From a virus (lineage: Duplodnaviria > Heunggongvirae > Uroviricota > Caudoviricetes), in the IMG/VR virus record IMGVR_UViG_3300035701_000015, positions 12,009 to 76,008 of that record: a DNA stretch of 64,000 bases. One strand, given 5' to 3'. A program made the position numbers and the translations under genes. Positions 16,257-62,702 of this stretch are shown here, one piece after another (position 1 is the first letter of the stretch; each line of letters opens with the position of its first letter). The notes beneath the pieces were generated by a model, which had not been told where the DNA came from, searched no databases, and saw only the letters and a list, made by a program, of their open reading frames with translations.

Positions 16257-16455
16257 TGGGTCTGAGATTATACTAAATCTCCTACGAGACAGAACTTGTG
16301 ATAATTGTTATTATGGACAAGGCCTCTTCTGTCACGAAGATACTAAAATATTTCCCGAAGAAAATACTTGTAATCTTTGGGAACCTTGCAAACATTATAC
16401 TGGGAAACCTTATACTGGAAGTTCACAGCTCGAAAGTTTCGAATCTGAGTTATGA
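16249..16455 (+). CDS. small Cys-motif family protein (LLRDRTCDNC)
   Basis: Family motif. Confidence 0.45.
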   Translation: MSNGSEIILNLLRDRTCDNCYYGQGLFCHEDTKIFPEENTCNLWEPCKHYTGKPYTGSSQLESFESEL

Positions 16456-46342: not shown

Positions 46343-47479
46343 ATGACTGTTAAGGAAATCAAGCAGGCTCTTGATTTAATTCTTCTGAAGTCGCCACAAG
46401 TTATCACTCCTTATATTCATGGAAAGCCTGGAGTAGGGAAGTCAGCGATTACTCATCAAATCGCTGAAACCAGAGATATCGGTTTCATCGATCTCAGACT
46501 GTCTCAACTTGAAAGTTCAGACATTCGGGGTATTCCAACTCCCGATCATAAGAACGGAAGTTCTCGGTGGCTTCCGCCAGAAACTATCCCGTTCGAAGTT
46601 TTCGAGAATTTGCCTATACCCAGCGACCCAAAAGGACGAAAGTTTTCTAACGGCGGGATCCTTTTCCTCGACGAAATCAACCGAGCACGTTTCGATGTTC
46701 TGCAATCAGTCTTCGAGTTGGTTTATGACCGCAGAGTTGGATTGCACAAGATTCTCGATAATTGGTTCATCGTATGTGCAGGAAACCTCGGTGAAGCAGA
46801 CAAGACAGAAGTTACCGAATTCACTGATGCAGCTCTCAATAATAGGTTCATCCATTTCTATGTAGAAGACCAGGGCCTCTTTGACTGTTGGGTCGAATGG
46901 GCAGAGAAAGAAGGCAATGTTCATTTCGACGTTGTAAATTTTATCAAGACGAAACCTTCAGCTCTTTACACCGAATGCAAAGACGACGATGTAATTTATT
47001 GCACTCCTCGAACTTGGGATAAATTTTCTCAGATACTCAAACAGAATACCGAAAAAGATCCTTCAGATATTACGAAGATAATCGGTAAGAGCATGCTCGG
47101 ACCTACAGCAGTGGGCTTCTTAGACTATCTGAGACAAAAATCAAAGATCTCACCTGAAGATGTTGTGCTTCGGTACCAGAATGCTGAAATTAAAAAGAAA
47201 GTCAAGAACCTTTCTCGAGATGAGAAGTATTCTTTATCGAACGAGATCACCAATTATATTTCTCAACACAGAAGTATGGACGACAAGAAGATCGGCAACA
47301 TTCATGAGTTTATTAGCAAAGAACTCGAAAAAGATCACATGATCGCCATTTACAAAGTTCTCGTAAATATTCCTATAAAGTATAATAACAAAGAACAAGA
47401 ATTCATGGCAGTTTATCTCGATCTTTATCCCGAGTTCAACGCCAAAATCGCTTCTATTTTGAGAGAGAGCCATGCCTAA
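46343..47479 (+). CDS. MoxR-like AAA+ ATPase (AAA_5), second copy
   Basis: HGKPGVGKSA, ILFLDEINRA. Confidence 0.6.
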   Translation: MTVKEIKQALDLILLKSPQVITPYIHGKPGVGKSAITHQIAETRDIGFIDLRLSQLESSDIRGIPTPDHKNGSSRWLPPETIPFEVFENLPIPSDPKGRKFSNGGILFLDEINRARFDVLQSVFELVYDRRVGLHKILDNWFIVCAGNLGEADKTEVTEFTDAALNNRFIHFYVEDQGLFDCWVEWAEKEGNVHFDVVNFIKTKPSALYTECKDDDVIYCTPRTWDKFSQILKQNTEKDPSDITKIIGKSMLGPTAVGFLDYLRQKSKISPEDVVLRYQNAEIKKKVKNLSRDEKYSLSNEITNYISQHRSMDDKKIGNIHEFISKELEKDHMIAIYKVLVNIPIKYNNKEQEFMAVYLDLYPEFNAKIASILRESHA

Positions 47480-48860
47480 AAACGTAATGCCAGAAAAGAT
47501 TTCGAATATTTGTGTAAGATGGCAAGACGGTTCTACTTGCCCATTCTTCGCCGAGTTCCTTCTGAGATTTAGGTATCGCGAAGATAAAGCTTGTTCAACA
47601 GTTGGTATAGCTTTTAACAAACATAGTAAATTAGAGCTTGTATACAACTCTGAATTCCTTGATAAGTTGACTCCGACAGAGGTTGAAGCCGTCTGTGTAC
47701 ACGAAATAATGCATGTGCTCCATAAGTTCGACGATAGATTAGGAACTAGATTTTTCGATCTCTTCAACGTAGCTCAAGATGCTTGTGTCAATAAAATCGT
47801 AAACGAAACCATAATAGGTAATAGACAACTTCAGATTCCAAAAGGTGGAGTAGACTTTGCGGAGATACAGAAGATGGGTTATAAAGGAGAAGCAATTTCT
47901 GAACCCGTCTATGATTTCTTAGAAAAGAAAGCTGAGAAGATTTATATTGTTTCAACTGGTGCAGATGGCCAACAAGGCGAGGGAGATAACACTTGTCCAA
48001 ATTGCGGAGGAAGTGGTAAAGCAGATAACGATAGCGATGGTAATGGTCAAGGCGAAGGAGATGGAAAATCTGGTTCGAAAAAAGGTAAGTCTGGGCAAGG
48101 AGATGGGAAAGAACAAAAAGAATGCCCAGTGTGCGGCGGATCTGGAAAACTACACGGTAAGAAAATACTTCGCACAACTGATGACCACACTCAAAGAAAA
48201 GAGAAGCTTACCGAAATTGAGAAAGCCATTATTGAAGATGTAATCAACAATGCTCGAACCCGTTCATGGGGCACAATGAGCGGTAATATGCAGAGCACGA
48301 TCACAGAACTAATTAAAACTAAAAGAATTCCGTGGCAACAAAAATTAGCTATGATCATGTCGAGATATGTGCATCAGTCAGGTAACGTTTATGAAAATAC
48401 ATGGTCTCGCAGAAACCGAAGAAGCTTACCACTTCCCGGAATACGAAAGATGTCGAAGAAGATAGTAGTTACTGTAGACACTTCTGGAAGTGTTTCAGAC
48501 TATGATATTAAGATGTTCTTCGGTCAGATTGAAAAGATTGTAAAAGACTTTTCTCAAATGACTTTGATACAATGGGACACAATTGTTCAAGGTGTAGAAC
48601 TTTATAAAAAGGGCGCTTGGAAGAAAATCAAAGTAAAGGGTCGTGGAGGCACTGATCCCCAAAAGTTGTATGATCTTCTCAACAGAGATTACTCTGACGT
48701 TTCAGCTGTAGTGAATTTCACAGATTCGTTTTTTGATTGGGGGTTCAAGTATTACGGCATCAATACAATTTGGGCCGTTATCAACAACCCAAATTTCAAA
48801 GCTCCTTTCGGTCAAACTATTATTATAGACAAACCAGAAAGAAGCGACCGGAGAGTATAA
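47472..48860 (+). CDS. HExxH metallopeptidase + zinc ribbons + vWA fusion protein
   Basis: VHEIMHVLH; CPNCGGSGK and CPVCGGSGK; MIDAS VTVDTSGSV. Confidence 0.55.
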   Translation: MPKNVMPEKISNICVRWQDGSTCPFFAEFLLRFRYREDKACSTVGIAFNKHSKLELVYNSEFLDKLTPTEVEAVCVHEIMHVLHKFDDRLGTRFFDLFNVAQDACVNKIVNETIIGNRQLQIPKGGVDFAEIQKMGYKGEAISEPVYDFLEKKAEKIYIVSTGADGQQGEGDNTCPNCGGSGKADNDSDGNGQGEGDGKSGSKKGKSGQGDGKEQKECPVCGGSGKLHGKKILRTTDDHTQRKEKLTEIEKAIIEDVINNARTRSWGTMSGNMQSTITELIKTKRIPWQQKLAMIMSRYVHQSGNVYENTWSRRNRRSLPLPGIRKMSKKIVVTVDTSGSVSDYDIKMFFGQIEKIVKDFSQMTLIQWDTIVQGVELYKKGAWKKIKVKGRGGTDPQKLYDLLNRDYSDVSAVVNFTDSFFDWGFKYYGINTIWAVINNPNFKAPFGQTIIIDKPERSDRRV

Positions 48861-48861
48861 T

Positions 48862-49123
48862 TATGGTTAAGATTATTATAAAGTTTAATCTTTGGTTAGA
48901 TAGCTTGAAAGGTGATAGGCGACTTTTTGTTGCTCTAGCAATTGCTCTACCTCTTATAATTTTAGGTACTTGGGTCCAAACTATCAATGATCCTTACACA
49001 GGTATTTTACTCATGCTAGTTTGGTTTACTTATTGTATTGTTATATTGTTCATTATTTTATGTCGCTTTGCTTATTTGAAGTATAAACGTGAAGTATCAC
49101 GAACACGCAAACAAAAGGAGTAA
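48862..49123 (+). CDS. small membrane protein
   Basis: Two TM helices. Confidence 0.4.
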
Positions 49124-49125
49124 GA

Positions 49126-49695
49126 ATGTCGTTGCAGATCAATAAAGCAGATATGGATCAAGCTTGGGTAGATAGGAAGAATAGCGATAAGTTCTATAAG
49201 TATCTCTATGACATCGCCAACCACCAAGTTTCTAAAAAAGGCATTGACTTTTATGAGCGATCTGAATATGTTCAATTTGCCGTGATGAAATGCTTTAAAC
49301 ATGAAGGTGCGTTCACACCGTCTAAGGGTGCTGCTTATTCTTTCTTCTGGAAACAAATTTCTTTGGCTATAGCTTACAAGCAAAGAAAAGAAGCTCGAAG
49401 AAATAACAAAGCTCGAACTTTTTATGTTGAACAAGAAAAAGTTCTTGACTGGATCGAGCGTGAGCACGAAAATAAAGGAGTACCTTTTTCTGAGATAGTG
49501 GGCATTGAAGAAGTTCTTAAAATTAAGCGTGCATTCAAGAGATATAATAACGAGCACAAATCTAAACTCAAGCCCAACAAAGAAAATACTGTCACAGTTC
49601 TTAAGTGGAACACAAAGAAAAATCCAGAATTTCTAAATGATTTCACCACACTAAAACACATCTTCGCGAGGTGGGTTGAGTGTCCCGCGAAATAG
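49126..49695 (+). CDS. hypothetical protein
   Basis: ORF. Confidence 0.5.
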   Translation: MSLQINKADMDQAWVDRKNSDKFYKYLYDIANHQVSKKGIDFYERSEYVQFAVMKCFKHEGAFTPSKGAAYSFFWKQISLAIAYKQRKEARRNNKARTFYVEQEKVLDWIEREHENKGVPFSEIVGIEEVLKIKRAFKRYNNEHKSKLKPNKENTVTVLKWNTKKNPEFLNDFTTLKHIFARWVECPAK

Positions 49696-49952
49696 AAAAA
49701 CAAAAAACGATAAATCTACTTAAGGGTAAAACGTGCCCAGATTGTATCTATTATTCTTCTGGTGATAAGTGTCAAGGGGCCGAAGATCTCCTCTTGCGCG
49801 CGACAGAAAAAAGACAGTGCCCAGAAACATTTTCTTGTGTAAGATGGATATCTAGAAACGAATTTTTTACTCGGAACTTAGGTTTGAGTCTAACTGTCCA
49901 AAAAGGAAAAATATTAAAAATTTCTATTACGCCGGTAGGTAATAACGCGTGA
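49680..49952 (+). CDS. small Cys-motif family protein (INLLKGKTCPDC)
   Basis: First of three tandem paralogs with EIEKQKxINLLK. Confidence 0.5.
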   Translation: MSREIEKQKTINLLKGKTCPDCIYYSSGDKCQGAEDLLLRATEKRQCPETFSCVRWISRNEFFTRNLGLSLTVQKGKILKISITPVGNNA

Positions 49953-50227
49953 CTAAACGAGAAATAGAGAAACAAAAAATTATAAATCTACTCAAGAATA
50001 GAATTTGTTCAAACTGTGCTTTTAATTCTCCCATTAATAGATGCCAACAACCTGACTCAGCGGGACAGTGGTACACTGTAGAATGGCCAAAAACACTTTC
50101 TTGTGAAAGATGGAGGAGTAAAAATGATTGGAAACCTCTTGAAATTGATGATGTTCAAAAATTAATTGAAGAATCGGGAAAACTAATTAAGCAATATGAA
50201 AAGACAAAGAAAAAATGGGGAGTCTGA
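49949..50227 (+). CDS. small Cys-motif family protein (INLLKNRICSNC)
   Basis: Tandem paralog. Confidence 0.5.
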   Translation: MTKREIEKQKIINLLKNRICSNCAFNSPINRCQQPDSAGQWYTVEWPKTLSCERWRSKNDWKPLEIDDVQKLIEESGKLIKQYEKTKKKWGV

Positions 50228-50375
50228 AAAACAAAGAGTTATAAATATACTTAAGGATAAAACTTGCCAAAACTGTTATTATTTTTCCAGAGAATGCGTT
50301 TTAGGCGTTTTAGACTCTTGTTCAAAATGGAGATCAACTCAAGTCTTTCCGCCACTTAGTGATCAACTCGAATAG
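50196..50375 (+). CDS. small Cys-motif family protein (INILKDKTCQNC), 59 aa
   Basis: Third tandem paralog; below the ORF track cutoff. Confidence 0.4.
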   Translation: MKRQRKNGESEKQRVINILKDKTCQNCYYFSRECVLGVLDSCSKWRSTQVFPPLSDQLE

Positions 50376-50429
50376 CTTCGTATCTAAGATATAATATAAA
50401 TGTATCAAAATCTCTTAGGAGGTTAAGAA

Positions 50430-50738
50430 ATGATCCTTCTGAATGACGGAGTTTTCGATGTCAAAGAAGAGGTCCCTTCAACTCGGTTCTGGCTCATGGC
50501 TAAGCTTCGGATCGGAGATCAGTTTGATAAGAGATGGGATATTTACGTCGACAACATCCGAAAACGCCTCATGGAGAACATGACTTACAATGGTCCGGAC
50601 ATCGCACCCAGTGAGGTCACCAAAGCTAAGAAAGAAATGGTGGATCAGATTCTTATCAAGTTGGAGAATTCAGCCTGGAAGACAATGCCGGCAGAGTTTC
50701 TTAAACAGTTGGATATTCCGAGAGTTATCAGGAAGTAA
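50430..50738 (+). CDS. hypothetical protein
   Basis: GGAGG RBS. Confidence 0.5.
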   Translation: MILLNDGVFDVKEEVPSTRFWLMAKLRIGDQFDKRWDIYVDNIRKRLMENMTYNGPDIAPSEVTKAKKEMVDQILIKLENSAWKTMPAEFLKQLDIPRVIRK

Positions 50739-50751
50739 CTATTCACATTAA

Positions 50752-50780
50752 AAGCCCCTCAATCACTGAGGGGCTTTTTT
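50752..50780 (+). terminator. rho-independent terminator
   Basis: gcccctca-atcac-tgaggggc followed by TTTTTT. Confidence 0.75.
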
Positions 50781-50785
50781 ATTTG

Positions 50786-50816
50786 CTAAAAAGGAGGGCG
50801 AGTATTTCACTCGCCC
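50786..50816 (-). terminator. minus-strand terminator
   Basis: gggcgagt-atttc-actcgccc with a T-tract on the minus strand. Confidence 0.5.
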
Positions 50817-50823
50817 TAAACGT

Positions 50824-51045
50824 TTAGAGTTCTTTGATCTTGTCGATCATTGCTTTGATGATTGCAATTGCATCATCAATTTGGGCGCCATCTGCCAAAC
50901 TAACCATTGCTTGGTCAACACCTGCTTTTACAACTGTAGCAATTTTGTCAAGCTTTTCTTCTTTTGCTGCATCTTTGAAAAGCTTAAGTACAATTACAGC
51001 TGCTAGTGCTGCAGACACTACGCCAAGGATAACTGTGAGAATCAT
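50824..51045 (-). CDS. small membrane-anchored protein
   Basis: N-terminal TM helix, followed by a minus-strand terminator. Confidence 0.35.
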   Translation of the reverse strand: MILTVILGVVSAALAAVIVLKLFKDAAKEEKLDKIATVVKAGVDQAMVSLADGAQIDDAIAIIKAMIDKIKEL

Positions 51046-51126
51046 AAAGACACCTCCGTACTCAGGATTATATAAGAGACTGAGCTATACCCAGCCAATA
51101 TTATCTTTAGTCAGACAGCCAATTTT

Positions 51127-51663
51127 ATGCGCATATATAACAACATGAACAGACCAACAAAAGAAGAGATTTTAATGAAGACTGCATTGCTTTATGCTGA
51201 ACGCTCAACTTGTATCAGAATAAAAGCTGGAGCAGTTATATCTCTCGGAGGTCACATCATCTCAGTCGGCTACAACGGAAATACTCCTGGCAAAGAACAC
51301 TGTATAGAACATTTCGAAAAAGAATATGAAGATTTAAAAAAGATGGGAGTAGTTTTGGCAAGTACTTGGGAGCAATTCTTACAATCAGATTGGCTATTAA
51401 AAAATCGTCATCACGAATGGGCTCTTAAATATGAACTGCACGCAGAGATGAATGCAATCATCTGGGCAGCTCGTAGAGGGATTGCCGTAGAGGGAGCTGA
51501 TATCTACACAACTTATTCACCGTGTCTCTTTTGCACAAAAGCAATTCTCCAATCTGGTATCAAAAGAGTATATTACAACCAACTTTATGATAAGCCAGAG
51601 GGTCAGAAATCGCTTGAAGTTTTAGAAGAGAACGGCATATTTGTACAGCAAATAAAAATATAG
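51127..51663 (+). CDS. dCMP deaminase
   Basis: HAEMNAI...SPCLFC zinc-binding motifs. Confidence 0.65.
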   Translation: MRIYNNMNRPTKEEILMKTALLYAERSTCIRIKAGAVISLGGHIISVGYNGNTPGKEHCIEHFEKEYEDLKKMGVVLASTWEQFLQSDWLLKNRHHEWALKYELHAEMNAIIWAARRGIAVEGADIYTTYSPCLFCTKAILQSGIKRVYYNQLYDKPEGQKSLEVLEENGIFVQQIKI

Positions 51664-51669
51664 GAGTGA

Positions 51670-52191
51670 TTGATGCTTTTGAAATATAGTTTGATTCGAG
51701 AGGTAGAGTATCCAATCAGAGGTCACGCAACAGATGCGGGAATCGATTTCTTCATGCCACAGATAAATGAAAAATTCATCTCAGATTTTAATGCGCTAAA
51801 AGCAAATAAAGGAGCTAGATTGGATAACGAAGAATTAACTTTGCTTCCAAGCTTTAATGCTTTGATACCATCTGGCGTGAAAGTAGAAATACCGTTTGGC
51901 CACATGGGACTCTTTCTTAATAAATCTGGAGTAGCTTCGAAAAAAGATTTGATTATCGGCGCTCAGGTCGTCGACACTTTTTATAGTGGCGAAATTCATA
52001 TTGATCTGCACAATGTGGGATCAGAAATAATCATAATTGTACCGAATGAAAAATTAGCTCAGATGGTAATTGTCCCCGTTCTGAATTGTGATCTAACTGA
52101 AGTTTCAGAAGACATGTTATACGATTGGATGAAAGAGAATGAATACAGAAATGAAAGCGGTTTTGGTAGCACAGATAAGAAAAAGTCTTAA
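51670..52191 (+). CDS. dut: dUTPase (trimeric type)
   Basis: ATDAGIDFF...GVASKKDLIIGAQVVDTFYSGEIHIDLHNVG. Confidence 0.6.
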   Translation: MMLLKYSLIREVEYPIRGHATDAGIDFFMPQINEKFISDFNALKANKGARLDNEELTLLPSFNALIPSGVKVEIPFGHMGLFLNKSGVASKKDLIIGAQVVDTFYSGEIHIDLHNVGSEIIIIVPNEKLAQMVIVPVLNCDLTEVSEDMLYDWMKENEYRNESGFGSTDKKKS

Positions 52192-52513
52192 GTTATTTTT
52201 TAAAAATAAAATAGTCAGAATAGTAGCTTTGTCTTTAGCTATATTCATAGTAGTAGGTTTAATACTTTTCTTCGTTCCGAAATTAATAATAAGTGTAATC
52301 TTGCTTGCCTACGGAGGTGCACCTAATTTTGCTGACAAAGCATTAACAATAGCTGTTCTTCTTCTTAATGCAATTCTATACCCGATATATTTGCTTGAAA
52401 GTGTGAAAGCTTATAATAAATATGAAAAAATTAAGTCTCAAAGAAAAAACGATAAAACTTTTAAGAAATCAAACTTGCGCCAGCTGTTCGAGATCTTTAA
52501 AAGCGGCCAATAA
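52139..52513 (+). CDS. membrane protein
   Basis: Three hydrophobic segments. Confidence 0.4.
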   Translation: MNTEMKAVLVAQIRKSLKLFFKNKIVRIVALSLAIFIVVGLILFFVPKLIISVILLAYGGAPNFADKALTIAVLLLNAILYPIYLLESVKAYNKYEKIKSQRKNDKTFKKSNLRQLFEIFKSGQ

Positions 52514-52554
52514 ATTTTGGTGTGATATTAGAAAAGATTATTACGATTCGAGAC

Positions 52555-52677
52555 ATGGATAAAGAAATCCGAAACAGACTCAGTGGTGAGCTTCAGAGAT
52601 TATCTCCTGAGGAATCAACGTATCTCAAAGAAGAAATCAAAGCGTTAACTACTCATGAGAGTAGTTTGTTGCGATAA
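52555..52677 (+). pseudogene. duplicated fragment of the dnaE-C 5' end
   Basis: Encodes ...LSPEESTYLKEEIKALTTHE, resembling ...LNSEEQTYLAEEIKALKTQE at the start of 52756. Confidence 0.35.
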
Positions 52678-52755
52678 AATTAAAAGAAAAAGAAATCAAA
52701 CATCTTTTTTCAGATTGCCAATACATAATTACTCATATACCAAGAGCAGGCAAGA

Positions 52756-55005
52756 ATGACGAAGAAAAACTTAATAGAATTTTTGCAGATGAGATCGAAA
52801 GAATTAAACAGCGAAGAGCAAACTTATTTAGCTGAAGAAATAAAAGCTCTCAAAACTCAAGAAGATGATCTCAAAAATCTTTTAAATTTAATAGATTCAA
52901 AGTCTAAATTAGAAAATCATAATAATGTTTTATCATTGTATCTTCTTGGCCTTTCTGAATATCCCAAAAAATTAAGACATTATTATTCGCTTGCCGATAT
53001 GGCCGATGTGGACATGGATTTTAGTCCCGACGGCCGCGACAAGATCAAAACATGGCTTAAAGAGAAATTCGGCGAAAAGAATTGTGTAAGCATTGGAACT
53101 TATGGAACTCTTGGTGTAAAAGGCTCAGTCCAAGAAATTTCTCGGGCTTATGGGATAAAGCCAAGTGAATACATTCAGATTAGCAAATTAGTTTCTGATG
53201 ACGACAAAGATTTAGACGTAGATGAAATCAGAGAGAAGTATCCCCAAGTAGAAGAGTTCCTTACCAATCATCCAGAAATTACTGATACCATCATAAAACT
53301 TATTGGAATGAAAAAGAATATTGGTCAACACGCTGGTGGTTTTGTTGTAAGCTCAGATAATGTATATGATAACATTCCAATTGTAAAAGCTAACAAGGGC
53401 GATGTTACTGGGTGGCAAGAATCTGGTGCTATAAAAGAATTAGAGGCACTTGGTTGGATTAAAGTTGATATTCTTGGTCTTTCTTGTGTAGAGCAAATCC
53501 GGTTATGTGTTGAAGAGATTAACCGAAAATATCCAGGAGCTATAAAAGGCGATCCATATCTTCTTCCTGTGGACGATCCCAAAGTATATGATTTTATTAA
53601 TACTCTTCAACTTGAAAACGTGTTTCAAATGGAGTCTAAAGTTTTCAAAGAAGCAGTAAGAATGATCCGACCGAGAAGCTTGCAAGATATATCAAACATT
53701 TCAACTTTGATTCGGCCTGGAGCAGCCTGCACCGTTGAAGAGTATAAGAAATCAGAGAATGTGAACTTCAAAGAAATTCCGAAATGTTTGCACAAAGTGT
53801 ATGACCACACTCGAGGATGGATGTTATACCAAGAACAGTTGTTACAAATATTAAAAGAACTTGGCGGATTTTCTATTTTCGAAGCTGACAAAGTTCGAAG
53901 ACTTGTAAGAAAGATCGGTAAAGCTAAAACTTCTGATGCAAATAGAAGTGATATGTTGAAAGAGACAGATAAGTATAAGACAATCTATCAGAAGCATGCA
54001 ACTACAAAAATAGTTGAAGAAGATAAGTGGCTTCAAGCGAAAGCTGAGAAATATGCCAATAGCCAATGGGAAGCGTTAATGGGTCAAGCAAAATATTCTT
54101 TCAACATGCCACATTCTTATGCATATTCTTTGATGGGTTATGTTCAAGCTTATCTTAAATGTTATTACCCCATAGATTTTTGGACTGCTGCATTAAATAC
54201 AATCACTAGAGGCTTAGAGAAGCACGGTGAAAGCAGTTTGGGTAAATATATAAACTCTATCGACTCAATGGGCATACCAATCGAAAAACCCAACGTGAAT
54301 AAGTCGGGTATAAATTTTGAAGGCGATGAGGGAAAAATCTATTTTGCTCTTAGCTATATCAAAGATGTTTCGAATGGTGCCGAAGAAGTCATGAAATATA
54401 GACCCTATGAAGATTGGGATGATTTCTTGAACAAAGCTGTTGAGAATAAAATTAATAAAAGAATAGCAAAAGGTTTGATCTTTTCTGGTGCTGTAGATTT
54501 TGAAGATGATATGGAAGCAAGAAGTTATAAGTGGGGTCTTTATCTGAAAGAAAAAGCTAAAGGCAAAAAGAACAAAGAAGAACTTGAAGAATACAAAAAT
54601 AACATGCCAGAGAAATATGAGCTCATACAAATGGAATATGAATATTGCAAATACAGTTTTACAGGCATCGATAAGTTTTTGCAGAGTTCAAAATATAAGA
54701 ATCTGACAACAATTTCTGACAGAGATAAAGCTAAAAAACTTTGGGTTCTTATTGGGTATATTTCTGACGTCGCAACAAAGAAAAGTAAAAAGTCTGGTAA
54801 TGAATATGTGCTAATAACTGTTACAGATTTCAGAGACGCAATAAGTGTTTATGCTTTTGGAGATGAATTTAGAAGTAAAATCCTCGGTACTTATAAAAAA
54901 GGCCAACTCATAAAGATTGGCGTTAAAAACGAATCTAATTGGCTCAAACTCCCTTTTGAAAACGAGTATAATCATTGTTTCCCAATAGAGATACTTTCAT
55001 CTTAG
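52756..55005 (+). CDS. dnaE: DNA polymerase III alpha (DnaE) C-terminal portion
   Basis: DMDFSPDGRD, GQHAGGFVV, FQMESK...LIRPG, GWMLYQEQLLQI, FNMPHSYAYSLMGY align to the DnaE core. Lacks the PHP domain. Confidence 0.7.
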   Translation: MTKKNLIEFLQMRSKELNSEEQTYLAEEIKALKTQEDDLKNLLNLIDSKSKLENHNNVLSLYLLGLSEYPKKLRHYYSLADMADVDMDFSPDGRDKIKTWLKEKFGEKNCVSIGTYGTLGVKGSVQEISRAYGIKPSEYIQISKLVSDDDKDLDVDEIREKYPQVEEFLTNHPEITDTIIKLIGMKKNIGQHAGGFVVSSDNVYDNIPIVKANKGDVTGWQESGAIKELEALGWIKVDILGLSCVEQIRLCVEEINRKYPGAIKGDPYLLPVDDPKVYDFINTLQLENVFQMESKVFKEAVRMIRPRSLQDISNISTLIRPGAACTVEEYKKSENVNFKEIPKCLHKVYDHTRGWMLYQEQLLQILKELGGFSIFEADKVRRLVRKIGKAKTSDANRSDMLKETDKYKTIYQKHATTKIVEEDKWLQAKAEKYANSQWEALMGQAKYSFNMPHSYAYSLMGYVQAYLKCYYPIDFWTAALNTITRGLEKHGESSLGKYINSIDSMGIPIEKPNVNKSGINFEGDEGKIYFALSYIKDVSNGAEEVMKYRPYEDWDDFLNKAVENKINKRIAKGLIFSGAVDFEDDMEARSYKWGLYLKEKAKGKKNKEELEEYKNNMPEKYELIQMEYEYCKYSFTGIDKFLQSSKYKNLTTISDRDKAKKLWVLIGYISDVATKKSKKSGNEYVLITVTDFRDAISVYAFGDEFRSKILGTYKKGQLIKIGVKNESNWLKLPFENEYNHCFPIEILSS

Positions 55006-55600
55006 TATCATCGTGTTTTAACTGGACGAAATCATACTCAGAGAATATCTGAAGTATTTCTTTTTGTCTCTTTACATCTCTATCGTTTAGAGAGCCATTT
55101 TTATAGTGCTTATTCTCATTCCACTCTATTATAAGCTTCAGATCAAAGTTGATATAATCAACCCAATATCCTAATTCTTTTATATAGAATTCCCCACTAT
55201 TAGTAGCATATCTACCAGATGTGTCGTGTGTCAAATCAAACTTTTCAAAGAATTCACATGCGGATTTGTTGAATGTGGGCATTATCCCACAAGTTGATTT
55301 TAGATAGCTTATCTGAGCTAATCTTAGTCTTCTTTTAGTTTCATCACTGTGTTTTCTCTCGCCACTTTTTGCATAACATTTAACAGAGCAATATATTTTA
55401 GCTCTCTTTCTTTTTCCATTGATTCTTCTCGGTATCTTTTTTCCACAAGTTTTACAAAATATAGATTTCATCATACTCTTGTGCTGGCACTTTAAAGAGC
55501 AATATATCGCTCTATTGATATGGCCATTACTCTTTCTATATTTCAGTATTTTGCTACATATTAGACATAATTTTCTCGGTAAATTTTCTATCTTTTTCAT
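54944..55600 (-). CDS. zinc-finger + PD-(D/E)xK (DUF559-like) putative homing endonuclease
   Basis: N-terminal CxxC pairs; C-terminal GYWVDYINFDLKLIIEWNENKHY. Confidence 0.4.
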   Translation of the reverse strand: MKKIENLPRKLCLICSKILKYRKSNGHINRAIYCSLKCQHKSMMKSIFCKTCGKKIPRRINGKRKRAKIYCSVKCYAKSGERKHSDETKRRLRLAQISYLKSTCGIMPTFNKSACEFFEKFDLTHDTSGRYATNSGEFYIKELGYWVDYINFDLKLIIEWNENKHYKNGSLNDRDVKRQKEILQIFSEYDFVQLKHDDTKMKVSLLGNNDYTRFQKGV

Positions 55601-55667
55601 TATTCATCTTCCCTTGGAAGCATCTTATTTTATCTTTAGAATGTGCGTCCTAATCTAAGATAATTGC

Positions 55668-56063
55668 ATGAGAATAGATCGTGTAATAGATTGGTTTAGT
55701 AAAACTGATGCTTATCTGTTAGAATTCTTCGACTTCGGTTCGCCGATATCAATCATATTAGAAGCAGACGTTATATACTATCCTCCCGCTAAATTTACAC
55801 CTTTGCGTAACGTCGACATCAATAAACTCAGATTAATGAATAGAGGCAGAACTACTTTCTCTGTAGAAAATAGAGAGAATAGGTTCGACAATATGCGATC
55901 TGGGTGGTTAAAGGAAACTAAGACTGCATCTAAGTTCAAGAATATAAAACCAGATAAATTGACTTGGGGCATTCTCAGAGGAACGTGTACCGAGCACGGT
56001 AGAGAAGACTCAAACATGCATCAAATAATAGATATGATATTTATTCAGGGAAACAAACTATGA
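55668..56063 (+). CDS. hypothetical protein
   Basis: ORF. Confidence 0.45.
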   Translation: MRIDRVIDWFSKTDAYLLEFFDFGSPISIILEADVIYYPPAKFTPLRNVDINKLRLMNRGRTTFSVENRENRFDNMRSGWLKETKTASKFKNIKPDKLTWGILRGTCTEHGREDSNMHQIIDMIFIQGNKL

Positions 56064-56509
56064 AAGTAGACAAAGCAGTAGATATGGGCAAAAATGGTGG
56101 TCATTCACCACAACATTGCACAGTTAAATACTTTAGTAGAATAGGTAAATTGAGATTCATCCTTAATTTAGATTGCGGTTATCCACCAGCTGGATACGAA
56201 AAGTTAGAAACAGGAGAAGATGAGGCATATCAAAAACCAGAAGATAACTTCAAAAAAGAAGACGCTTGGGAAGTAGCTATGGTTTCTAAGTTGTTTCTGA
56301 ACAAAAGTGCCAAAGCAGTTGATATAGATTTTTACAGTGATCCAAATGACGAAGGATTCGATGAAGAACATGAAAGTTGGATGGAGGAATACAAATACTC
56401 TTGGCCAGCCTTTGCATTTGAGAATAGGAAACCAGACAAATTATTTTGGGACGGTATTTATAGGGTCAGAAAGAATTTCATAAAGAGAATTTTCAGAGGA
56501 ATTGCTTAA
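56060..56509 (+). CDS. hypothetical protein
   Basis: ORF. Confidence 0.45.
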   Translation: MKVDKAVDMGKNGGHSPQHCTVKYFSRIGKLRFILNLDCGYPPAGYEKLETGEDEAYQKPEDNFKKEDAWEVAMVSKLFLNKSAKAVDIDFYSDPNDEGFDEEHESWMEEYKYSWPAFAFENRKPDKLFWDGIYRVRKNFIKRIFRGIA

Positions 56510-56817
56510 TGGAAGCTAATGAGATTAAATTTGAAGACATTGAGCTCACGACTTGGTACAGCATTTTATATAGTGAATTTGGCGATTTTTGGATGATGAT
56601 AACAAAGAAGTCAAAGAATGAACATGAAAGTATATCTTTTTCTAAGAGCGAATGGATTGAACATAATGGAATAGTAAAAAGAAGAGATTGGCACCAAGGT
56701 GAATTTGGGACTATCGGAGCTATTAGAAAAATAAATGAAGAAGGCTGGGATCTCATCAGTCAAAAATTATTCAAGTCTATATTTAATCCCAATGTAAATA
56801 TCTTAAAAGAAGCATAA
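56509..56817 (+). CDS. hypothetical protein
   Basis: ORF. Confidence 0.45.
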   Translation: MEANEIKFEDIELTTWYSILYSEFGDFWMMITKKSKNEHESISFSKSEWIEHNGIVKRRDWHQGEFGTIGAIRKINEEGWDLISQKLFKSIFNPNVNILKEA

Positions 56818-56825
56818 TTCTATTC

Positions 56826-57212
56826 ATGCAAGATTTGTCTCGACATCCACAATTTCAACTTTTAATCAAAGAGATTGATAAAAGTTTAGTACCTGTTGAA
56901 CAATTCACAGAAATAGTTATTGAAAATATACCCGCAGCAATTCTATCTTTCGACTATGAATATCTGCAGACTGCAAATTCTAACGCAAAATTAATGCTCG
57001 AATTTATGGAAAAATATTTAAATGAATTAAATAAAGGCTATAAAGAAACTGAAAAATCTCTAATAGTTCTCCATGAAATAGGCAACAAAAGAGATCCCTT
57101 CGAAATGCCAATTGAGTTTGAACTTGCCTATTATGATATGATAAGACCTATAATTAACAGAATCAAAGACTTAAGGGAAATAATAAGTTCTACAAATAAA
57201 CTCCTCACATAG
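56826..57212 (+). CDS. hypothetical protein
   Basis: ORF. Confidence 0.45.
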   Translation: MQDLSRHPQFQLLIKEIDKSLVPVEQFTEIVIENIPAAILSFDYEYLQTANSNAKLMLEFMEKYLNELNKGYKETEKSLIVLHEIGNKRDPFEMPIEFELAYYDMIRPIINRIKDLREIISSTNKLLT

Positions 57213-57220
57213 TTTGAAAT

Positions 57221-58648
57221 ATGAAAGAATTAAATCCTAATTATGTTCAACTCCACACTCATTCTGTCGGGAGTCTCCGCGATGGGATCATGAAAGTAAG
57301 AGACCATGTGCAATTTGCTGTTCAGCATAAAAAGAAATTCGTATCAATAAGTGATCATGGATCTATTTCAGAATGGATAGAGCTTTATACTGATTGTGCT
57401 AAAGAGAAGATCCAGCCCATTTATGGAATTGAGGGCTATATTCATCTCGACCGAGACAAATATCTCGAAGAAAAGAACAGCGGTAGTAAACCAGGTCACA
57501 TTCTTTTGTTAGCCCAAAATGAAATCGGTTTCAAGAATATAGTAAGAGTTCATAATGATGCCTGGCAGCATTTTTACAAAAGACCGATAATGAGTTATGA
57601 TTATTTATTCGATCATACAGAGGGTATTATTGTTGGTACTGCTTGTATGGGTGGCACTCTATCAAAGTACCTTATAGCAAAAGATATTGTGGGAGCCGAC
57701 AATTTCATAGAAACGATGAAAGAGAAATTTCCAAATAGGTTCTTCGTAGAGCTTATGCTTATTGACATGGACGAACAAACAGAATTAAACAGACAGTTGA
57801 TTCAGATTGCTAAAAAGCACAAAGTTCCCGTGATAGTTGGCAATGATCCACATTATATGACAGCTGAGGACAATAAAGCCCACCAAATATCTTTACTTCT
57901 TCAAAGCAGTCAAACCGTTAAAGATCTTGAAAGCGGTAAAGGCTGGTCATTCTCAGCCCAAGACTTATGGATGAAGACAGAGAAAGACCTTTATCAAGAC
58001 TGGAAGAAGAAGTATAGCAAAGATCCAATCTTTACTGAAGAAGTATTCGTTGAAGCAACTTGGAACGTAAAGAAAATAACCGATACAATCGAAGAAATCT
58101 ATTTAGAGCATCCGCCAAGATTACCGAAATATAAAAACGGTAAGAAGCTTCTTGAGCAAATTACAGTTGATGGTTTTGCTGAAAAAGTTGAGGAAGGTAT
58201 AATTCCCCAAGATCGTGTTGATGAATATATAGATCGTATCAAGTATGAGCTCAAGACGATAGATGATTTAGATTTGATAGATTATTTCTTGCTTATCAAA
58301 GAGATTCATACTTTTTGTGATAAACATGCAATAGCAGTTGGTCCTGGAAGAGGATGTTTTATAAGAGGATCAAAAGTTAAGACAAAAGATGGATATAAAA
58401 ATATAGAAGAAGTACAAATTGGAGATGTGATATATAATAAAAATGGAACTGATTTAGTCGTAAATAAGTTTGATTACGAAGTAGACGAAGATCTGTGTAA
58501 ATTAATAATAGACGGCCAAGAAATAATTTGTACTTCAGAACATAAATTTGAAGTACTGCGAGAAAATAAAGTTTTTTGGATAAAAGCAAAAAATATAAAA
58601 GTTGATGATATGATAGTAAAAATAGACACTTACCAGAAAGATAAATAA
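57221..58648 (+). CDS. dnaE: DnaE N-terminal PHP domain fused to the intein N-terminal half
   Basis: HTHSVGSLRDG and ISDHGSISEW PHP motifs; ...VGPGRG then CFIRGSKVKTKDGYKNIEEV... (97 aa IntN-like); ends with TAA. Confidence 0.65.
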   Translation: MKELNPNYVQLHTHSVGSLRDGIMKVRDHVQFAVQHKKKFVSISDHGSISEWIELYTDCAKEKIQPIYGIEGYIHLDRDKYLEEKNSGSKPGHILLLAQNEIGFKNIVRVHNDAWQHFYKRPIMSYDYLFDHTEGIIVGTACMGGTLSKYLIAKDIVGADNFIETMKEKFPNRFFVELMLIDMDEQTELNRQLIQIAKKHKVPVIVGNDPHYMTAEDNKAHQISLLLQSSQTVKDLESGKGWSFSAQDLWMKTEKDLYQDWKKKYSKDPIFTEEVFVEATWNVKKITDTIEEIYLEHPPRLPKYKNGKKLLEQITVDGFAEKVEEGIIPQDRVDEYIDRIKYELKTIDDLDLIDYFLLIKEIHTFCDKHAIAVGPGRGCFIRGSKVKTKDGYKNIEEVQIGDVIYNKNGTDLVVNKFDYEVDEDLCKLIIDGQEIICTSEHKFEVLRENKVFWIKAKNIKVDDMIVKIDTYQKDK

Positions 58649-59657
58649 GTGCTTACTTGGGGGTGTCTAGTGGGCAACAAGCAAAAATTCCATAAGAGTA
58701 CAATTTACCCCAAAGAAATATACGATTTAAAAGTTGAAGAAAAACTTATACCCTTTGAAATTGCAAAAAAATATTTTTTAACTATTTTTAACTCTAAACT
58801 CGTTGTATGCTATAATTGTGTAAAATGCGGTAAATCTGGACATACGCAATTTAGACACTTAAAAAAAAGAAATACAGATAAACCATATTGTAATAATTGT
58901 TGGCTCAAGATGAAGACATCTGAAAATACTGCATGGCTAAAAAAGAACTCAGATACTCAGAAAATAATTCAGAATACCGACGAGGTAAAGAATAAAAATA
59001 GAAAAGCAGTAAGCTTATTCTGGAAAAATAATCCTGAAAAAATTATTGAGATGAGGAAAAAGATCTTATCTAATCCTAATGTAAAAAATTATAATTATAA
59101 CCATGGTTTTTTTATTCTCGAAAATGGAAATAAAATTCTTTTTGAAAGTAACTACGAACTTTTGTATATTTTATATTGCGACAAAAATAATATTCTAATA
59201 CGAAGATTCGAAGATAAAGATCACTTCATAAAATATAAAAACTCGATAAAAAATAAATTGTGCTTATATAAGCCAGATTTTATAATAAACGAAAAAACAA
59301 TAGTAGAGGTAAAGGGATCTAAAATAAACAAAGTGCTTTCTTATCAAATACCATTTTTAGAAAAAAAAGAAGCTTTAGAGAAATCAGGTCGAGAGCATAT
59401 ATTTTTATATAAAGAAGATATAAAGAAAATAAGTGGTATAAATAGATTTAGAAAAGGTAATAGAGAATTTGATAATTTAATCCTTTCTCTCTTGACTAGG
59501 AATAAAATAATTATTTCTTCTAAGAAATACAAGGAGTACTATCATGTTGGTGGGTAGAGTTGAGAGTGTAAGCAAAGTGAAATATGTTGGCCGAGTATAT
59601 GATTTGGGAGTGGAAAGAGATCCATCGTACAACGTTGAGGATTATATAGTACATAAT
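58355..59657 (+). mobile_element. intein in dnaE interrupted by an in-frame TAA and a frameshift (IntN - HEN ORF - IntC)
   Basis: Intein starts at Cys after GPGRG and ends at ...YIVHN before [14 protein letters not shown]. Confidence 0.55.
58649..59557 (+). CDS. homing-endonuclease-like ORF within/between intein halves
   Basis: Same frame as 57221..58648 directly after TAA; GTG start; CxxC pairs. Confidence 0.45.
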
Positions 59658-59780
59658 AGTGTTTCAGCATCTTTGGTAACTTTCGTTATAGGAATAACTA
59701 AACTCGATCCTATTAAGTATAACTTTATTTTTGAAAGGTTCTTGAATCCAGCCAGAAAGACGAGGTTGAAAATATTCTGA
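59544..59780 (+). CDS. intein C-terminal half + 40-aa DnaE extein fragment
   Basis: [38 protein letters not shown] | [31 protein letters not shown]... Confidence 0.5.
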
Positions 59781-60184
59781 TGAAACTATTCAGAAAAGAT
59801 AAAAATGAGATAATCCAAAAGAAAACTCTTAAAAATGAGATAATTGATTTGCTCAGAAATCAATCATGTCAAGGTTGTAAATATCTTTGCATATCGTATG
59901 ATACTACTAGAAAAACAGAATTTAAATTTTGCACTTTAGATACTAAAAATGGTTGCATCTTAGATTCAGAAGAAGTAAGAAGTTGTGAGAATTATGAACC
60001 AAGTATAAGAATAGCTGAAATTATCGTTCGACCCGATGATGGCAACAAGATAATATCAAAGGTAGACTTAATTCATTTATACGACAACAAAGAGATCAAA
60101 TTTTTGATAGAACAAAAAGGAGATGATTTGTTGGGTCGTGGTCCAGGAATCATAAGTTACCATATGCGACTTTACTTGGAGTAG
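59780..60184 (+). CDS. small Cys-motif family protein (IIDLLRNQSCQGC)
   Basis: Family motif. Confidence 0.45.
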   Translation: MKLFRKDKNEIIQKKTLKNEIIDLLRNQSCQGCKYLCISYDTTRKTEFKFCTLDTKNGCILDSEEVRSCENYEPSIRIAEIIVRPDDGNKIISKVDLIHLYDNKEIKFLIEQKGDDLLGRGPGIISYHMRLYLE

Positions 60185-60187
60185 ACT

Positions 60188-60613
60188 GTGGTTGAACAAT
60201 CTGCAGGATGCGCAATAATAAAACATTTTAATGGAGTGCCGCATATACTCCTTGCACATGCTGCTGGCAACTGGAAACTTAAATTGATGGGTATTCCAAA
60301 AGGCCATGTTGAAGCTGATGAAGATCTAAAGAAAGCTGCTATCAGAGAAACTTATGAAGAGGTTGGGATCAAGCCAGATATACTCGACTATCTCGGTTCA
60401 GTAACGACTAATCAAGGTAAGAAAGTTCACGGTTATATCGCTCTTATGAAATCTGGCGATTTAGATGGTAAAAAAGCTACTAAGTTGCATAGATCAGAAA
60501 TAGATTACGCTAAGTTCTTTCCCATCGAAAATGCGGTCAATATGGTTTATGTGTATCAAAGACCTTTGATACAGAGAGCGAAAGAATATATTGAACGAGA
60601 ACATCTACGCTAA
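60188..60613 (+). CDS. NUDIX hydrolase
   Basis: Nudix box GIPKGHVEADEDLKKAAIRETYEEVGI. Confidence 0.65.
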   Translation: MVEQSAGCAIIKHFNGVPHILLAHAAGNWKLKLMGIPKGHVEADEDLKKAAIRETYEEVGIKPDILDYLGSVTTNQGKKVHGYIALMKSGDLDGKKATKLHRSEIDYAKFFPIENAVNMVYVYQRPLIQRAKEYIEREHLR

Positions 60614-60848
60614 ATTAGCAACTATTAATTTTCTAAAAGATTGGAACTGTATGAACTGTGCAAGATGTACAGTTCGAGGCAGAAATAAAAAAGTTGAGTT
60701 AGTACCGATTATCTCTCGGTCAGAACAAAGAGCTTATACTACATGCTGGGACTGGGCGCCTAGAGATGTTTTTCCAAACCAAGAAGACGCAAATATTTTC
60801 TTTTCTAGAGAATTAGATTACCCTGAACTATACAAACAAAAAACATGA
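60591..60848 (+). CDS. small Cys-motif family protein (INFLKDWNCMNC)
   Basis: Family motif. Confidence 0.45.
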   Translation: MNENIYAKLATINFLKDWNCMNCARCTVRGRNKKVELVPIISRSEQRAYTTCWDWAPRDVFPNQEDANIFFSRELDYPELYKQKT

Positions 60849-61135
60849 TAACTAATAAAAAAGAAAATACGATAGCATTACTTAAAGGTGATATCTGTAA
60901 AAACTGCATTTTTCTTATTCATAAAACAATGATAGATATATTAGAAAAAAATTATAAATTTTTAAAAAGATATGTAGTTTTAGAGGGCGATTATATATCG
61001 CTTAAACCACCTCATTGTGCTTATCTACATAATGGTCTCTTTACTCAAAAAAGCGAAGTCGATTTGTATGGCTGTTGTCAACATTATGTAGCTGTTATCC
61101 CTCATGTGAATGCTTCGATTCGAAGATATAATTAA
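60845..61135 (+). CDS. small Cys-motif family protein (IALLKGDICKNC)
   Basis: Family motif; tandem with the previous gene. Confidence 0.45.
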   Translation: MITNKKENTIALLKGDICKNCIFLIHKTMIDILEKNYKFLKRYVVLEGDYISLKPPHCAYLHNGLFTQKSEVDLYGCCQHYVAVIPHVNASIRRYN

Positions 61136-61138
61136 ACT

Positions 61139-62452
61139 ATGACACTAACACGTAAAGCGAAGAAAATAGTCAAGACTCTCCAGAAGAATGGCCATCAGGC
61201 CGTTTTTGCTGGAGGGAGTGTCAGAGATATGCTTCTTAGCAACACTCCTCACGATTACGACATAGCCACTTCTGCTACCCCCGAACAGGTCGAGTCTCTA
61301 TTCAAGAATACCAGGGCGGTGGGAAAAGCTTTCGGTGTAATACTCGTCAAATACAAGGATGTAGATTTTGAAGTGGCTACCTTCAGGTCTGACGGTCATT
61401 ATAGTGATGGCCGTCGACCTGATGAGGTCGTATTTACTACAATAGAAGAGGATGCTGCTCGCAGAGACTTTACAGTCAATGCGATGTTCTACAATCCTAT
61501 AAACAAGCAAGTCATAGACTATGTTAATGGTTTGCAAGACTTAGAAAACAAAGTTCTTCGGTTCGTCGGTAACGCTGAAGAGAGAATAAACGAAGATAAC
61601 CTCAGATTACTTCGAGCTGTAAGGTTCTCTCTTAAGCTCAACTTTGAAATGGACATTGCCTCTTTCAATCAAGTACGATTCAACGCTGAGAAGGTGCAGA
61701 ACGTAGCGCCCGAAAGAATACGCGAAGAACTTATGAAGATGATAGAACTCGGCAAACCTCGTAAGATGATACAGCTTCTGTTCCAAACGGGGCTCATGCA
61801 CCAGGTACTACCTGAAGTGGTAAATCTAAAGGGTTCTCCTCAGAATCCTGAGTTCCATCTTGAAGGAGATGTTCTAGAGCACACTATACTCGTGATGGAA
61901 AAGTTAGTTGGGCAAAATCCTTTAATGCAACTTGCCGGCTTGTTACATGACATAGCGAAACCCACTACTCTAGTCATAGAAGATGGGAGGCCTACCAATA
62001 AAGGGCACGATGCTGCAGGTGCCGACATGACTGAGACGATAATGCTTCGACTCAAGTTTTCTAATGATGAGATAGAGTTCGTGAAGAATCTCGTAGCCGA
62101 TCACATGAGGCACCACATAGCGAAAGAATTTAGAAAGTCTACTCTGAAGAGGTATCTGGCTTTGCCTTACTTCAACGAGCTTATGTTGTTGAATGAAGCT
62201 GACACTCTGTCTGCTTCTGGCAATCTGGAACACATAGAGTTTCTCAGAGAAAAAATGAGCGAATGGAAGCCCGAAGTAATAAGACCCAAGCCTCTTATAA
62301 CTGGTCTCGATCTTATAAAGCTTGGGTATAAGCCTGGTCCCATATTTACTACTATACTAGACCACGTATCAGATCTCCAACTTGAAGGTCAGATAGCAAA
62401 TAAAAATCAAGCTCTGAGGATGGTAAATGAGAACTACCCGCTGCCACGATAA
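61139..62452 (+). CDS. cca: tRNA nucleotidyltransferase (CCA-adding enzyme) with HD domain
   Basis: GGSVRDMLL...DYDIAT head domain; HD motif LLHDIAK...DH. Confidence 0.7.
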   Translation: MTLTRKAKKIVKTLQKNGHQAVFAGGSVRDMLLSNTPHDYDIATSATPEQVESLFKNTRAVGKAFGVILVKYKDVDFEVATFRSDGHYSDGRRPDEVVFTTIEEDAARRDFTVNAMFYNPINKQVIDYVNGLQDLENKVLRFVGNAEERINEDNLRLLRAVRFSLKLNFEMDIASFNQVRFNAEKVQNVAPERIREELMKMIELGKPRKMIQLLFQTGLMHQVLPEVVNLKGSPQNPEFHLEGDVLEHTILVMEKLVGQNPLMQLAGLLHDIAKPTTLVIEDGRPTNKGHDAAGADMTETIMLRLKFSNDEIEFVKNLVADHMRHHIAKEFRKSTLKRYLALPYFNELMLLNEADTLSASGNLEHIEFLREKMSEWKPEVIRPKPLITGLDLIKLGYKPGPIFTTILDHVSDLQLEGQIANKNQALRMVNENYPLPR

Positions 62453-62702
62453 TGACAAAGAAACGATCAAGAATGTTCTTCGAAATCGAGCTTGTGGAAA
62501 CTGTGAGCGCCACCGAAGTTTTAATAGTAATTGGCAACATTGTGCATTGAAAAGATACACACCAGAGTTCAACGTTTGTTCGCAGTGGAAAATGAGTTGG
62601 TCAGCTAAGGCGACTAAGCTTAATAATCACAGAGAGAAAATTGCCAAAAAGCGGAAAGCAAAGAGAGAAGCAAAGAGAGAAACGCCGAGCCTCATCTCTT
62701 AA
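62427..62702 (+). CDS. small Cys-motif family protein (NVLRNRACGNC)
   Basis: Family motif. Confidence 0.45.
   Translation: MRTTRCHDNDKETIKNVLRNRACGNCERHRSFNSNWQHCALKRYTPEFNVCSQWKMSWSAKATKLNNHREKIAKKRKAKREAKRETPSLIS

Follow-up and report, generated by a model that had tools for sequence, protein, structure and literature searches.

A two-gene, reversed-order DnaE in a large uncultured phage, with a putative split intein and a free-standing nuclease gene inside its N gene

The DNA studied here is a 64-kb window of the IMG/VR record IMGVR_UViG_3300035701_000015, which comes from a large uncultured phage. By 'the window' we mean the full stretch of 64,000 nucleotides (nt), and coordinates are given in window positions. 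Within it lie the parts of a gene for DnaE, the catalytic subunit of C-family DNA polymerases. An earlier sequence-only reading had described a fractured dnaE with its polymerase core upstream of the N-terminal PHP part, and all the open reading frames (ORFs) are indeed present where that reading had placed them. The features of the locus are the following.

52756-55005, plus strand: DnaE core subunit gene, 749 amino acids (aa), with Pfam matches to DNA_pol3_alpha (model positions 100-260), DNA_pol3_finger, HHH_6 and OB.
57221-58354, plus strand: N-extein, comprising PHP and the first part of the palm, 378 aa, ending AVGPGRG (Pfam PHP and DNA_pol3_alpha 3-66).
58355-58648, plus strand: putative N-terminal intein half (IntN), 97 aa (58355-58645), with Cys1, block B TSEH and a TAA stop at 58646-58648 (from sequence reading, weak Pfam Hint matches and a profile).
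58625-58667, plus strand: predicted RNA hairpin over the IntN stop, in which the Shine-Dalgarno-like GGGGG upstream of the nuclease start is paired (predicted fold).
58670-59557, plus strand: free-standing nuclease gene, 295 aa, GTG start, with a zinc ribbon (CxxC...CxxC), a helical region and a C-terminal PD-(D/E)xK domain.
59531-59546, plus strand: AAGGAG Shine-Dalgarno sequence (59531-59536) and ATG of the IntC gene, within the last nuclease codons (KYKEYY).
59544-59657, plus strand: putative C-terminal intein half (IntC), 38 aa, ending YIVHN (Pfam Intein_splicing 122-155; blocks F and G invariant in six alleles).
59658-59780, plus strand: C-extein, 40 aa, followed by a TGA stop at 59778-59780 (Pfam DNA_pol3_alpha 66-100).

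The DnaE palm, as represented by the Pfam model DNA_pol3_alpha (PF07733), is covered by three consecutive pieces of this locus: model positions 3-66 by 57221-58354, positions 66-100 by 59658-59777 and positions 100-260 by the core gene. Since they occupy consecutive palm positions, the polymerase core and the PHP part belong to one DnaE, as first supposed, and are not unrelated paralogs. Two different breaks have to be distinguished here. One is a clade-wide split of DnaE into two genes, the core gene and the PHP-containing N gene, and the other is an intein cassette within the N gene. We consider it very likely that the window carries a two-gene DnaE whose N gene was invaded at GPGRG/S (the slash marks the insertion point) by an intein cassette that is itself broken by a nuclease gene. 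This reading is carried by the anatomy of the locus, the homologies of its parts, the conservation of three ORFs and of the catalytic residues, the constraint at the protein level and the patchy distribution of the cassette, all of which are established here.

The boundaries of the intein can be read from the sequence and agree with those given previously: GPGRG is followed by the 97-aa IntN and an in-frame TAA, and the 38-aa IntC ends in HN. The +1 residue is Ser, encoded at 59658, and the IntC ORF (59544-59780) comprises 78 aa in total. The residues expected of a class 1 intein of the HINT type, C1, T60-x-x-H63, D117, H134-N135 and S136, do not vary among six alleles. In a single-sequence PDB search the best match was gp41-1 (E 7.5e-7); a profile of the six alleles produced full-length HINT matches at 7e-9 and also found gp41-1 (1.9e-6) and NrdJ-1 (8.6e-6). 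The similarity to the Npu and Ssp DnaE inteins, the first of which had been proposed for comparison, is marginal (E 0.1-0.5). The split point falls in the loop where P0149, a contiguous mini-intein of a relative, has ...TQTFNKWNKGFVFGDR.... The charge is -6 over IntN residues 39-60 and +2 over the initial 20 residues of IntC, and we propose that these locally opposite charges could help the two halves to associate.

Contigs of relatives were fetched and read directly: L002 (278 kb), L004 (158 kb), L001 (106 kb), L008 (56 kb), L010 (171 kb; grouped with L011 and L012, three samples) and L007. Close loci in IMG/VR were only two, and no relative was found among the GTDB genomes. Among cultured phages, the best GenBank matches show at most 33% identity and have a full-length DnaE.

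The arrangement of an IntN ending in a stop, a nuclease gene of about 295 aa and an IntC recurs in three divergent relatives, L006, L010 (also L011 and L012) and L013. In L006 and L010 the N-extein shares 60-66% identity with that of the window, and L013 is a far more distant DnaE, unsplit at FERFLNP, whose closest listed counterpart, P0159, shows 35% identity. The position of the IntN stop is within three codons of the window's in L006, L010 and L007. Other alleles differ at the same site. In most alleles of the clade GPGRG/S is empty; L008 carries the contiguous mini-intein P0149, of 143 aa; and in L007 the nuclease is reduced to a remnant of about 50 codons with stops, the IntN stop and the IntC start being kept. 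Placed on an N-extein tree, the alleles with an intein are scattered, and each of them has intein-free sisters; this points to horizontal gain or repeated loss.

Two distant members of the nuclease family are fusion proteins. P0260 (1009 aa) joins a uracil-DNA glycosylase (UDG) domain, PHP, palm, IntN and nuclease in one frame, and P0202 (415 aa) joins nuclease, IntC and extein. Such fusions would stand midway between endonucleases that are free-standing and those embedded in an intein.

The nuclease of the window has no match in Pfam and matches phrog_33911, a family of unknown function, over its full length. An exhaustive HMMER search recovered 104 representative relatives. An alignment of 46 of them shows no variation at C50, C53, C74, E163, D203 and K215 and hardly any at C77, P202 and E213, which defines a zinc ribbon followed by an E...PD...ExK signature; the active-site residues of the window protein are E163, D203, E213 and K215. 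Members of the family match Tn7_TnsA-like_N, DUF7487 and Phage_endo_I, and the family profile matches T7 endonuclease I. Neither the protein nor its family produced a GIY-YIG, DUF559 or Vsr match. By these motifs and matches the nuclease is a canonical PD-(D/E)xK enzyme, similar to TnsA and T7 endonuclease I and not of the GIY-YIG or Vsr-like type.

The nearest folds belong to a transposase subunit (TnsA) and a junction resolvase (T7 endonuclease I) and not to homing enzymes; moreover, the nuclease copies have diverged as deeply as the host gene, with no recent mobility visible. Both facts would suit a functional split intein around a middle ORF for a PD-(D/E)xK protein that is either domesticated or unrelated, for instance a regulator or a nuclease specific for certain structures. 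We regard this explanation as unlikely, though it fares best among the alternatives. All four close nuclease clusters are located exactly between DnaE intein halves, including that of the distant L013, and the distribution on the host-gene tree is patchy. The deletion in L007 and the in-frame fusions P0260 and P0202 follow the life-cycle pattern of homing endonuclease genes, and the zinc ribbon with a helical N-terminal DNA-binding region resembles that of other free-standing homing enzymes.

Further evidence comes from the conservation of the coding sequences. Proportions of nonsynonymous differences (pN) are 0.2-0.36 for IntN, IntC and the nuclease, against 0.56-0.9 for synonymous ones (pS); the synonymous sites are saturated, so these figures give no proper estimate of dN/dS. 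The exteins likewise have a pN far below pS at this saturating divergence. The 40-aa C-extein is 82% identical to its orthologues and ends at the same residue. Such constraint argues against a decaying locus in which the N gene is inactivated, no splicing takes place and replication relies on another polymerase or on a truncated PHP protein. The partial view of the genome and the degenerate look of the nearby ORF 54944-55600 (Asn in place of a motif Asp, few NUMOD3 repeats) speak for decay. The invariance of the intein catalytic residues in six alleles speaks against it, as does the arrangement itself, which long phage contigs from four or more lineages have retained, and we hold decay to be quite improbable.

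The sequence-only reading had begun the endonuclease ORF at 58649 with GTG. A free-standing nuclease gene with a GTG start in the frame of IntN is indeed present, but its start is most likely at 58670: the context gtcta(A/G)TGGGC is conserved, with ATG in relatives and GTG in the window, and the Joint Genome Institute (JGI) annotation calls the same 295-aa product. Downstream, no frameshift needs to be invoked before IntC, as had been done. IntC is a separate overlapping ORF with its own AAGGAG 7 nt before its ATG at 59544, and a Shine-Dalgarno sequence inside the 3' end of the nuclease is found as well in L006 (aaggaa), L010 (aaggag) and L007 (agggag, a remnant). Nuclease and IntC overlap by 14 nt in the window (in different frames), 47 in L006, 14 in L010 and 17 in L013. 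The hairpin predicted over the IntN stop has a consensus that comprises 16 pairs, of which 5 show compensatory changes, in three sequences (window, L006 and L010), with fold z values of -2.1 in L006 and -3.7 in L010; it probably restrains translation of the nuclease. Scans for sigma-70 promoters and terminators produced no signals above shuffles.

The frames of IntN, nuclease and IntC are 2/2/0 in the window, 0/2/0 in L006, 0/0/1 in L010 and 1/0/1 in L013. As they vary among relatives, the shared frame of IntN and nuclease in the window is incidental, and two sequencing errors in a large intein are ruled out as the source of the arrangement. On comparison of the alleles the intein is genuinely split, with a free-standing nuclease gene between its halves. 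A Logan assembly of SRR11719878 matches window positions 47221-59587 with 0 mismatches and spans both suspect positions, the IntN stop and the IntC start region. That the locus is an artefact of sequencing or assembly, behind which stands an ordinary large intein with its endonuclease domain in frame, could be suggested by the mere TAA and seven codons between IntN and the nuclease ORF in one frame and by the in-frame fusion of IntN and nuclease in the distant homologue P0260. This is hardly credible: two independent errors would be required while a second assembly is identical, three divergent relatives keep three ORFs in differing frames, the conserved nuclease start (A/G)TG-GGC, called by JGI and shared with orthologues, lies downstream of a conserved hairpin, IntC has its own start signals, and L007 is split without a nuclease.

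The second break separates the N gene from the core. A protein search with the core retrieved about 25 PHP-less orthologues of about 745 aa, 57-76% identical and aligned from end to end, the first 80 residues included. The N gene retrieved about 30 intein-free orthologues of 414-422 aa; the N-extein is 80% identical to one of them, the 417-aa P0122. In all fetched contigs the order of genes is dCMP deaminase, dUTPase, core gene, 0-9 small genes, N gene, NUDIX and CCA-adding enzyme. The core gene is upstream of the N gene and on the same strand in every contig examined, and the two genes abut in L008. This two-gene layout was directly verified in seven lineages, namely the window, L001, L002, L004, L007, L008 and L010. 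The intein-free N gene of L001 ends exactly where the predicted spliced product of the window ends, and its last 16 residues are the same. The stop after 40 extein residues, which the sequence-only reading had correctly located, is therefore no truncation but the normal end of the N subunit, because the intein-free N genes of all orthologues end there.

The residues expected after FERFLNP could be located in the core gene. Canonical DnaEs continue there with MPDFDVDF, of which the counterpart is MADVDMDF, at about residues 81-88 of the core. The distant DnaEs L013 and L016 are contiguous across this point. A cryptic second intein at the FERFLNP break was considered and rejected: there is no Hint match and no junction of HN with a nucleophile, 9 residues follow FERFLNP, and the N-terminal extension of the core is helical. 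From the genomes compared, the layout with the core upstream of the N gene is a conserved property of a clade of large metagenomic phages and not a recent rearrangement. The earlier attribution of the permuted order and of the stop after FERFLNP to repeated invasion and recombination is not supported, the same layout being found clade-wide and mostly in intein-free alleles. A relic of the core 5' end (52555-52677), a second nuclease gene at the core 3' end and a comparable scar in L006 might suggest that endonucleases produced the reversed order and the truncation in this very genome, but the order, the C-terminus of the N gene and the core extension of about 80 aa occur in every relative examined, including intein- and nuclease-free alleles, and the abutting genes of L008 make such an origin scarcely plausible.

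Residues 1-80 of the core (52756-52995) form a clade-specific extension without counterpart in other DnaEs, and the catalytic motif DVDMDF comes next. The extension has residues invariant among orthologues and is predicted to be helical, with a predicted local distance difference test score (pLDDT) of 70-89. When the core is modelled by itself with AlphaFold2, its palm strands receive a pLDDT below 50; such poor prediction would fit, though not prove, a palm completed by a partner subunit. We also considered the extension as a degenerate copy of the tail of the N gene, which would give the reversed order a tandem-duplication origin. BLAST of the core against full-length DnaE reaches back to residue 59, and hhalign of extension and tail gives a collinear alignment (P 0.12-0.17). 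With a hidden Markov model of the SLVAYxLGIT...FERFLNP segment, real extensions score no better than shuffles (31-39% of shuffles do as well), and this origin is not supported.

The following sequence of events can be proposed. The cassette would give rise to three proteins, the N-extein with IntN (475 aa), the nuclease (295 aa) and IntC with the C-extein (78 aa), the ribosome-binding site of the nuclease being sequestered by the hairpin over the IntN stop. IntN and IntC would associate and trans-splice GPGRG to SVSAS, yielding an N subunit of 418 aa collinear with uninterrupted orthologues, which would bind the 749-aa core non-covalently and complete the palm. The nuclease would act as a homing endonuclease, cutting cassette-free alleles of co-infecting relatives and thereby spreading the cassette.

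Several observations weigh against this interpretation, besides the saturation of synonymous sites already mentioned. Splicing, DNA cleavage and homing, and assembly of the heterodimer are steps that we infer. The nuclease start in the window is a GTG with a weak Shine-Dalgarno sequence. The hairpin of the window has a fold z of -0.45, no better than shuffles, and its covariation comes from three sequences. The identical Logan assembly may derive from the same reads. Our view is limited to 64 kb of the genome, and an additional polymerase could be encoded elsewhere. The target of the nuclease could be either the empty site or a nuclease-free mini-intein.

A bolder reading, to which we give about even chances, is that the clade's DnaE is a previously undescribed, obligately heterodimeric C-family polymerase and that the nuclease founds a new family of intein-targeting homing endonucleases. 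The palm would then be complete only once the PHP-containing N subunit docks on the separately encoded core, with the 80-aa helical extension of the core as a dedicated assembly domain. In the phage of the window the enzyme would require three translation products and one trans-splicing step. As part of the same reading, the set of alleles (empty, mini-intein, fractured, nuclease-deleted and in-frame fused) may capture each step proposed to lead from mini-inteins to split or large inteins. A literature search on TnsA-like intein endonucleases and split phage DnaE turned up nothing relevant.

Other traces of mobile elements are found at and around the locus, and a family of small ORFs is listed with them here.

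52555-52677, plus strand: relic of the 5' end of a DnaE-core gene, an ORF of 40 codons that has an ATG and then a stop (blastx).
54944-55600, minus strand: candidate free-standing DUF559/Vsr-like nuclease, 218 aa, with a zinc-finger N-terminus and one NUMOD3-like repeat (homology).
9360-9719, 16249-16455, 49949-50227, 50196-50375 and 52422-52562: small ORFs with the motif LLK(D/N)xxCxxC.
59780-60184, 60591-60848, 60845-61135 and 62427-62702: further small ORFs with this motif.

The relic, previously described as a partial duplicate of the dnaE core 5' end, is real. In blastx, its alignment with P0004/P0007-type cores covers their residues 2-34 (52% identity, E 1e-6), and its alignment with the core of the window covers residues 15-39 (60%, E 1e-7 to 2e-5). 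It copies the clade-specific N-terminal extension and not the polymerase-homologous part, and no long repeat was found for it at the DNA level.

The minus-strand ORF had been noted as a second endonuclease-like gene. It is clearly homologous to NUMOD3/DUF559 ORFs near the dnaE genes of relatives, among them L006 7180-7998 (E 4e-25), but its own match to DUF559 is weak (E 0.023, 15 bits against a cut-off of 20.6). Its family matches NUMOD3 (1.3e-20) and DUF559 (2.6e-7), with members at varied places beside the relatives' dnaE genes. The ORF is short, and its motif WVDY...IIEWNENKH has Asn where relatives (L004) have the Asp of an E-x-D motif. Alone it has no match in the PDB, and the family profile matches only the NUMOD3 region of I-TevI. 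It converges with the core gene, their 3' ends overlapping by 62 nt (54944-55005).

Traffic of mobile elements at this locus is real, given the relic, the second nuclease gene, the patchy inteins and a second fractured site in relatives; it accounts for the intein cassette and the scars, and not for the two-gene architecture. The second fractured site lies in the core gene at QAKY/SFNMPHS, in L001 (9995-15249) and L010 (596-3755); the window core is intact there. Its nuclease is of the DUF559/ROS_MUCR type, and its IntC ends SEQ/S, the last residue being Gln and the one before it not His. In L001, IntN and nuclease of this site are kept apart by four additional ORFs. A relic of 55 codons from the 5' end of an N gene lies at 5489-5671 in L006, 2.3 kb upstream of the N gene of L006 itself. 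It is almost the same as the L001 allele, and between it and the N gene lie a minus-strand NUMOD3 nuclease and two DUF4238 genes. To judge from this arrangement, it looks like the scar of a cassette insertion or allele replacement.

The small ORFs share the motif at their N-terminus and are scattered among replication genes; further copies occur in L001 (9516 and 9712) and L006 (10640). The copy at 52422 is apparently truncated. One member, 59780-60184, was scanned against PHROGs and had no match. The window also carries 32 tRNA genes on the plus strand (471-37157), one of which, at 3231-3303, has the anticodon CTA and would read UAG. Recoding of TAG affecting the stops of the cassette was considered and rejected: IntN ends in TAA, reading through the TAG of the nuclease would add two codons, and TAG-interrupted ORFs are not in excess in the window.

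These loci could be of wider use. They add a natural split intein with Ser at +1 and a very short C-extein, together with contiguous and nuclease-free alleles, and would be useful as orthogonal tools for protein ligation. A DNA polymerase encoded in a clade of large phages by two palm-split genes in reversed order raises the question of how C-family polymerases tolerate fragmentation. The nuclease indicates that fractured genes include a third nuclease type, a canonical PD-(D/E)xK family.

Among known systems, the closest are the fractured genes that Dassa et al. described in 2009 from Global Ocean Sampling (GOS) metagenomes, for example gp41-1, NrdJ-1, IMPDH-1 and DnaE-1, -2 and -3 (PMC2677866). 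The locus studied here corresponds to that arrangement, as the sequence-only reading had recognized, with a split intein, a free-standing nuclease gene between the halves and flanks that are consecutive parts of DnaE. It is a further example of a known layout and not a new kind, three DnaE loci having already been listed by these authors. In the published loci IntN measures 88-105 aa and IntC 33-54 aa, and endonuclease and IntC overlap by 6-69 bp in 15 loci (PMC2677866); the 97- and 38-aa halves and the 14-nt overlap of the window fall within these ranges. A hairpin 5' of the nuclease was reported there as well, the window having a predicted one (z as given above), and phage origin is common to both. 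The published nucleases are GIY-YIG or Vsr-like, and the invading element was proposed to supply a start for the downstream part (PMC2677866). The window differs in having a canonical PD-(D/E)xK nuclease, related to DUF7487, and in that the host gene is only the N subunit of an already two-gene DnaE, hence the 40-aa C-extein. In all, three points set it apart: the type of nuclease, the host, which is a subunit of a DnaE already split and reversed, and how complete the allelic series is. Dassa et al. drew a gene-breaking model whose stages correspond to the allele states at GPGRG/S (PMC2677866), and such a series at a single site directly tests the proposed invasion of mini-inteins by endonucleases to give split or large inteins. 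I-Bth0305I and other Vsr-like (EDxHD, DUF559) homing endonucleases are also among the nearest known systems (PMC3239194). As in Ssp and Npu DnaE, the catalytic subunit of a C-family polymerase is here interrupted by a naturally split intein; the halves have similar lengths, and those of the window would likewise trans-splice.

In the cyanobacterial DnaE the insertion point lies further downstream, and the +1 residue is Cys. The window insertion is in the palm, at GPGRG/S, with Ser at +1, and the sequence match between these inteins is marginal. The cyanobacterial halves are encoded at separate loci, with no nuclease between them (PMC2677866). For the break between FERFLNP and DVDMDF, the models are cases of fragmentation without inteins, the nrdA gene of Aeromonas phage Aeh1 (PMC3045599) and an SbcD-like locus (PMC2677866). 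In these, an essential enzyme is made as two polypeptides that must come together without a covalent bond, and the break carries short additional sequences (PMC3045599, PMC2677866). The break in the window differs from them in that it has no nuclease, its parts are in reversed order, it bears a conserved 80-aa helical extension and it is fixed throughout the clade.

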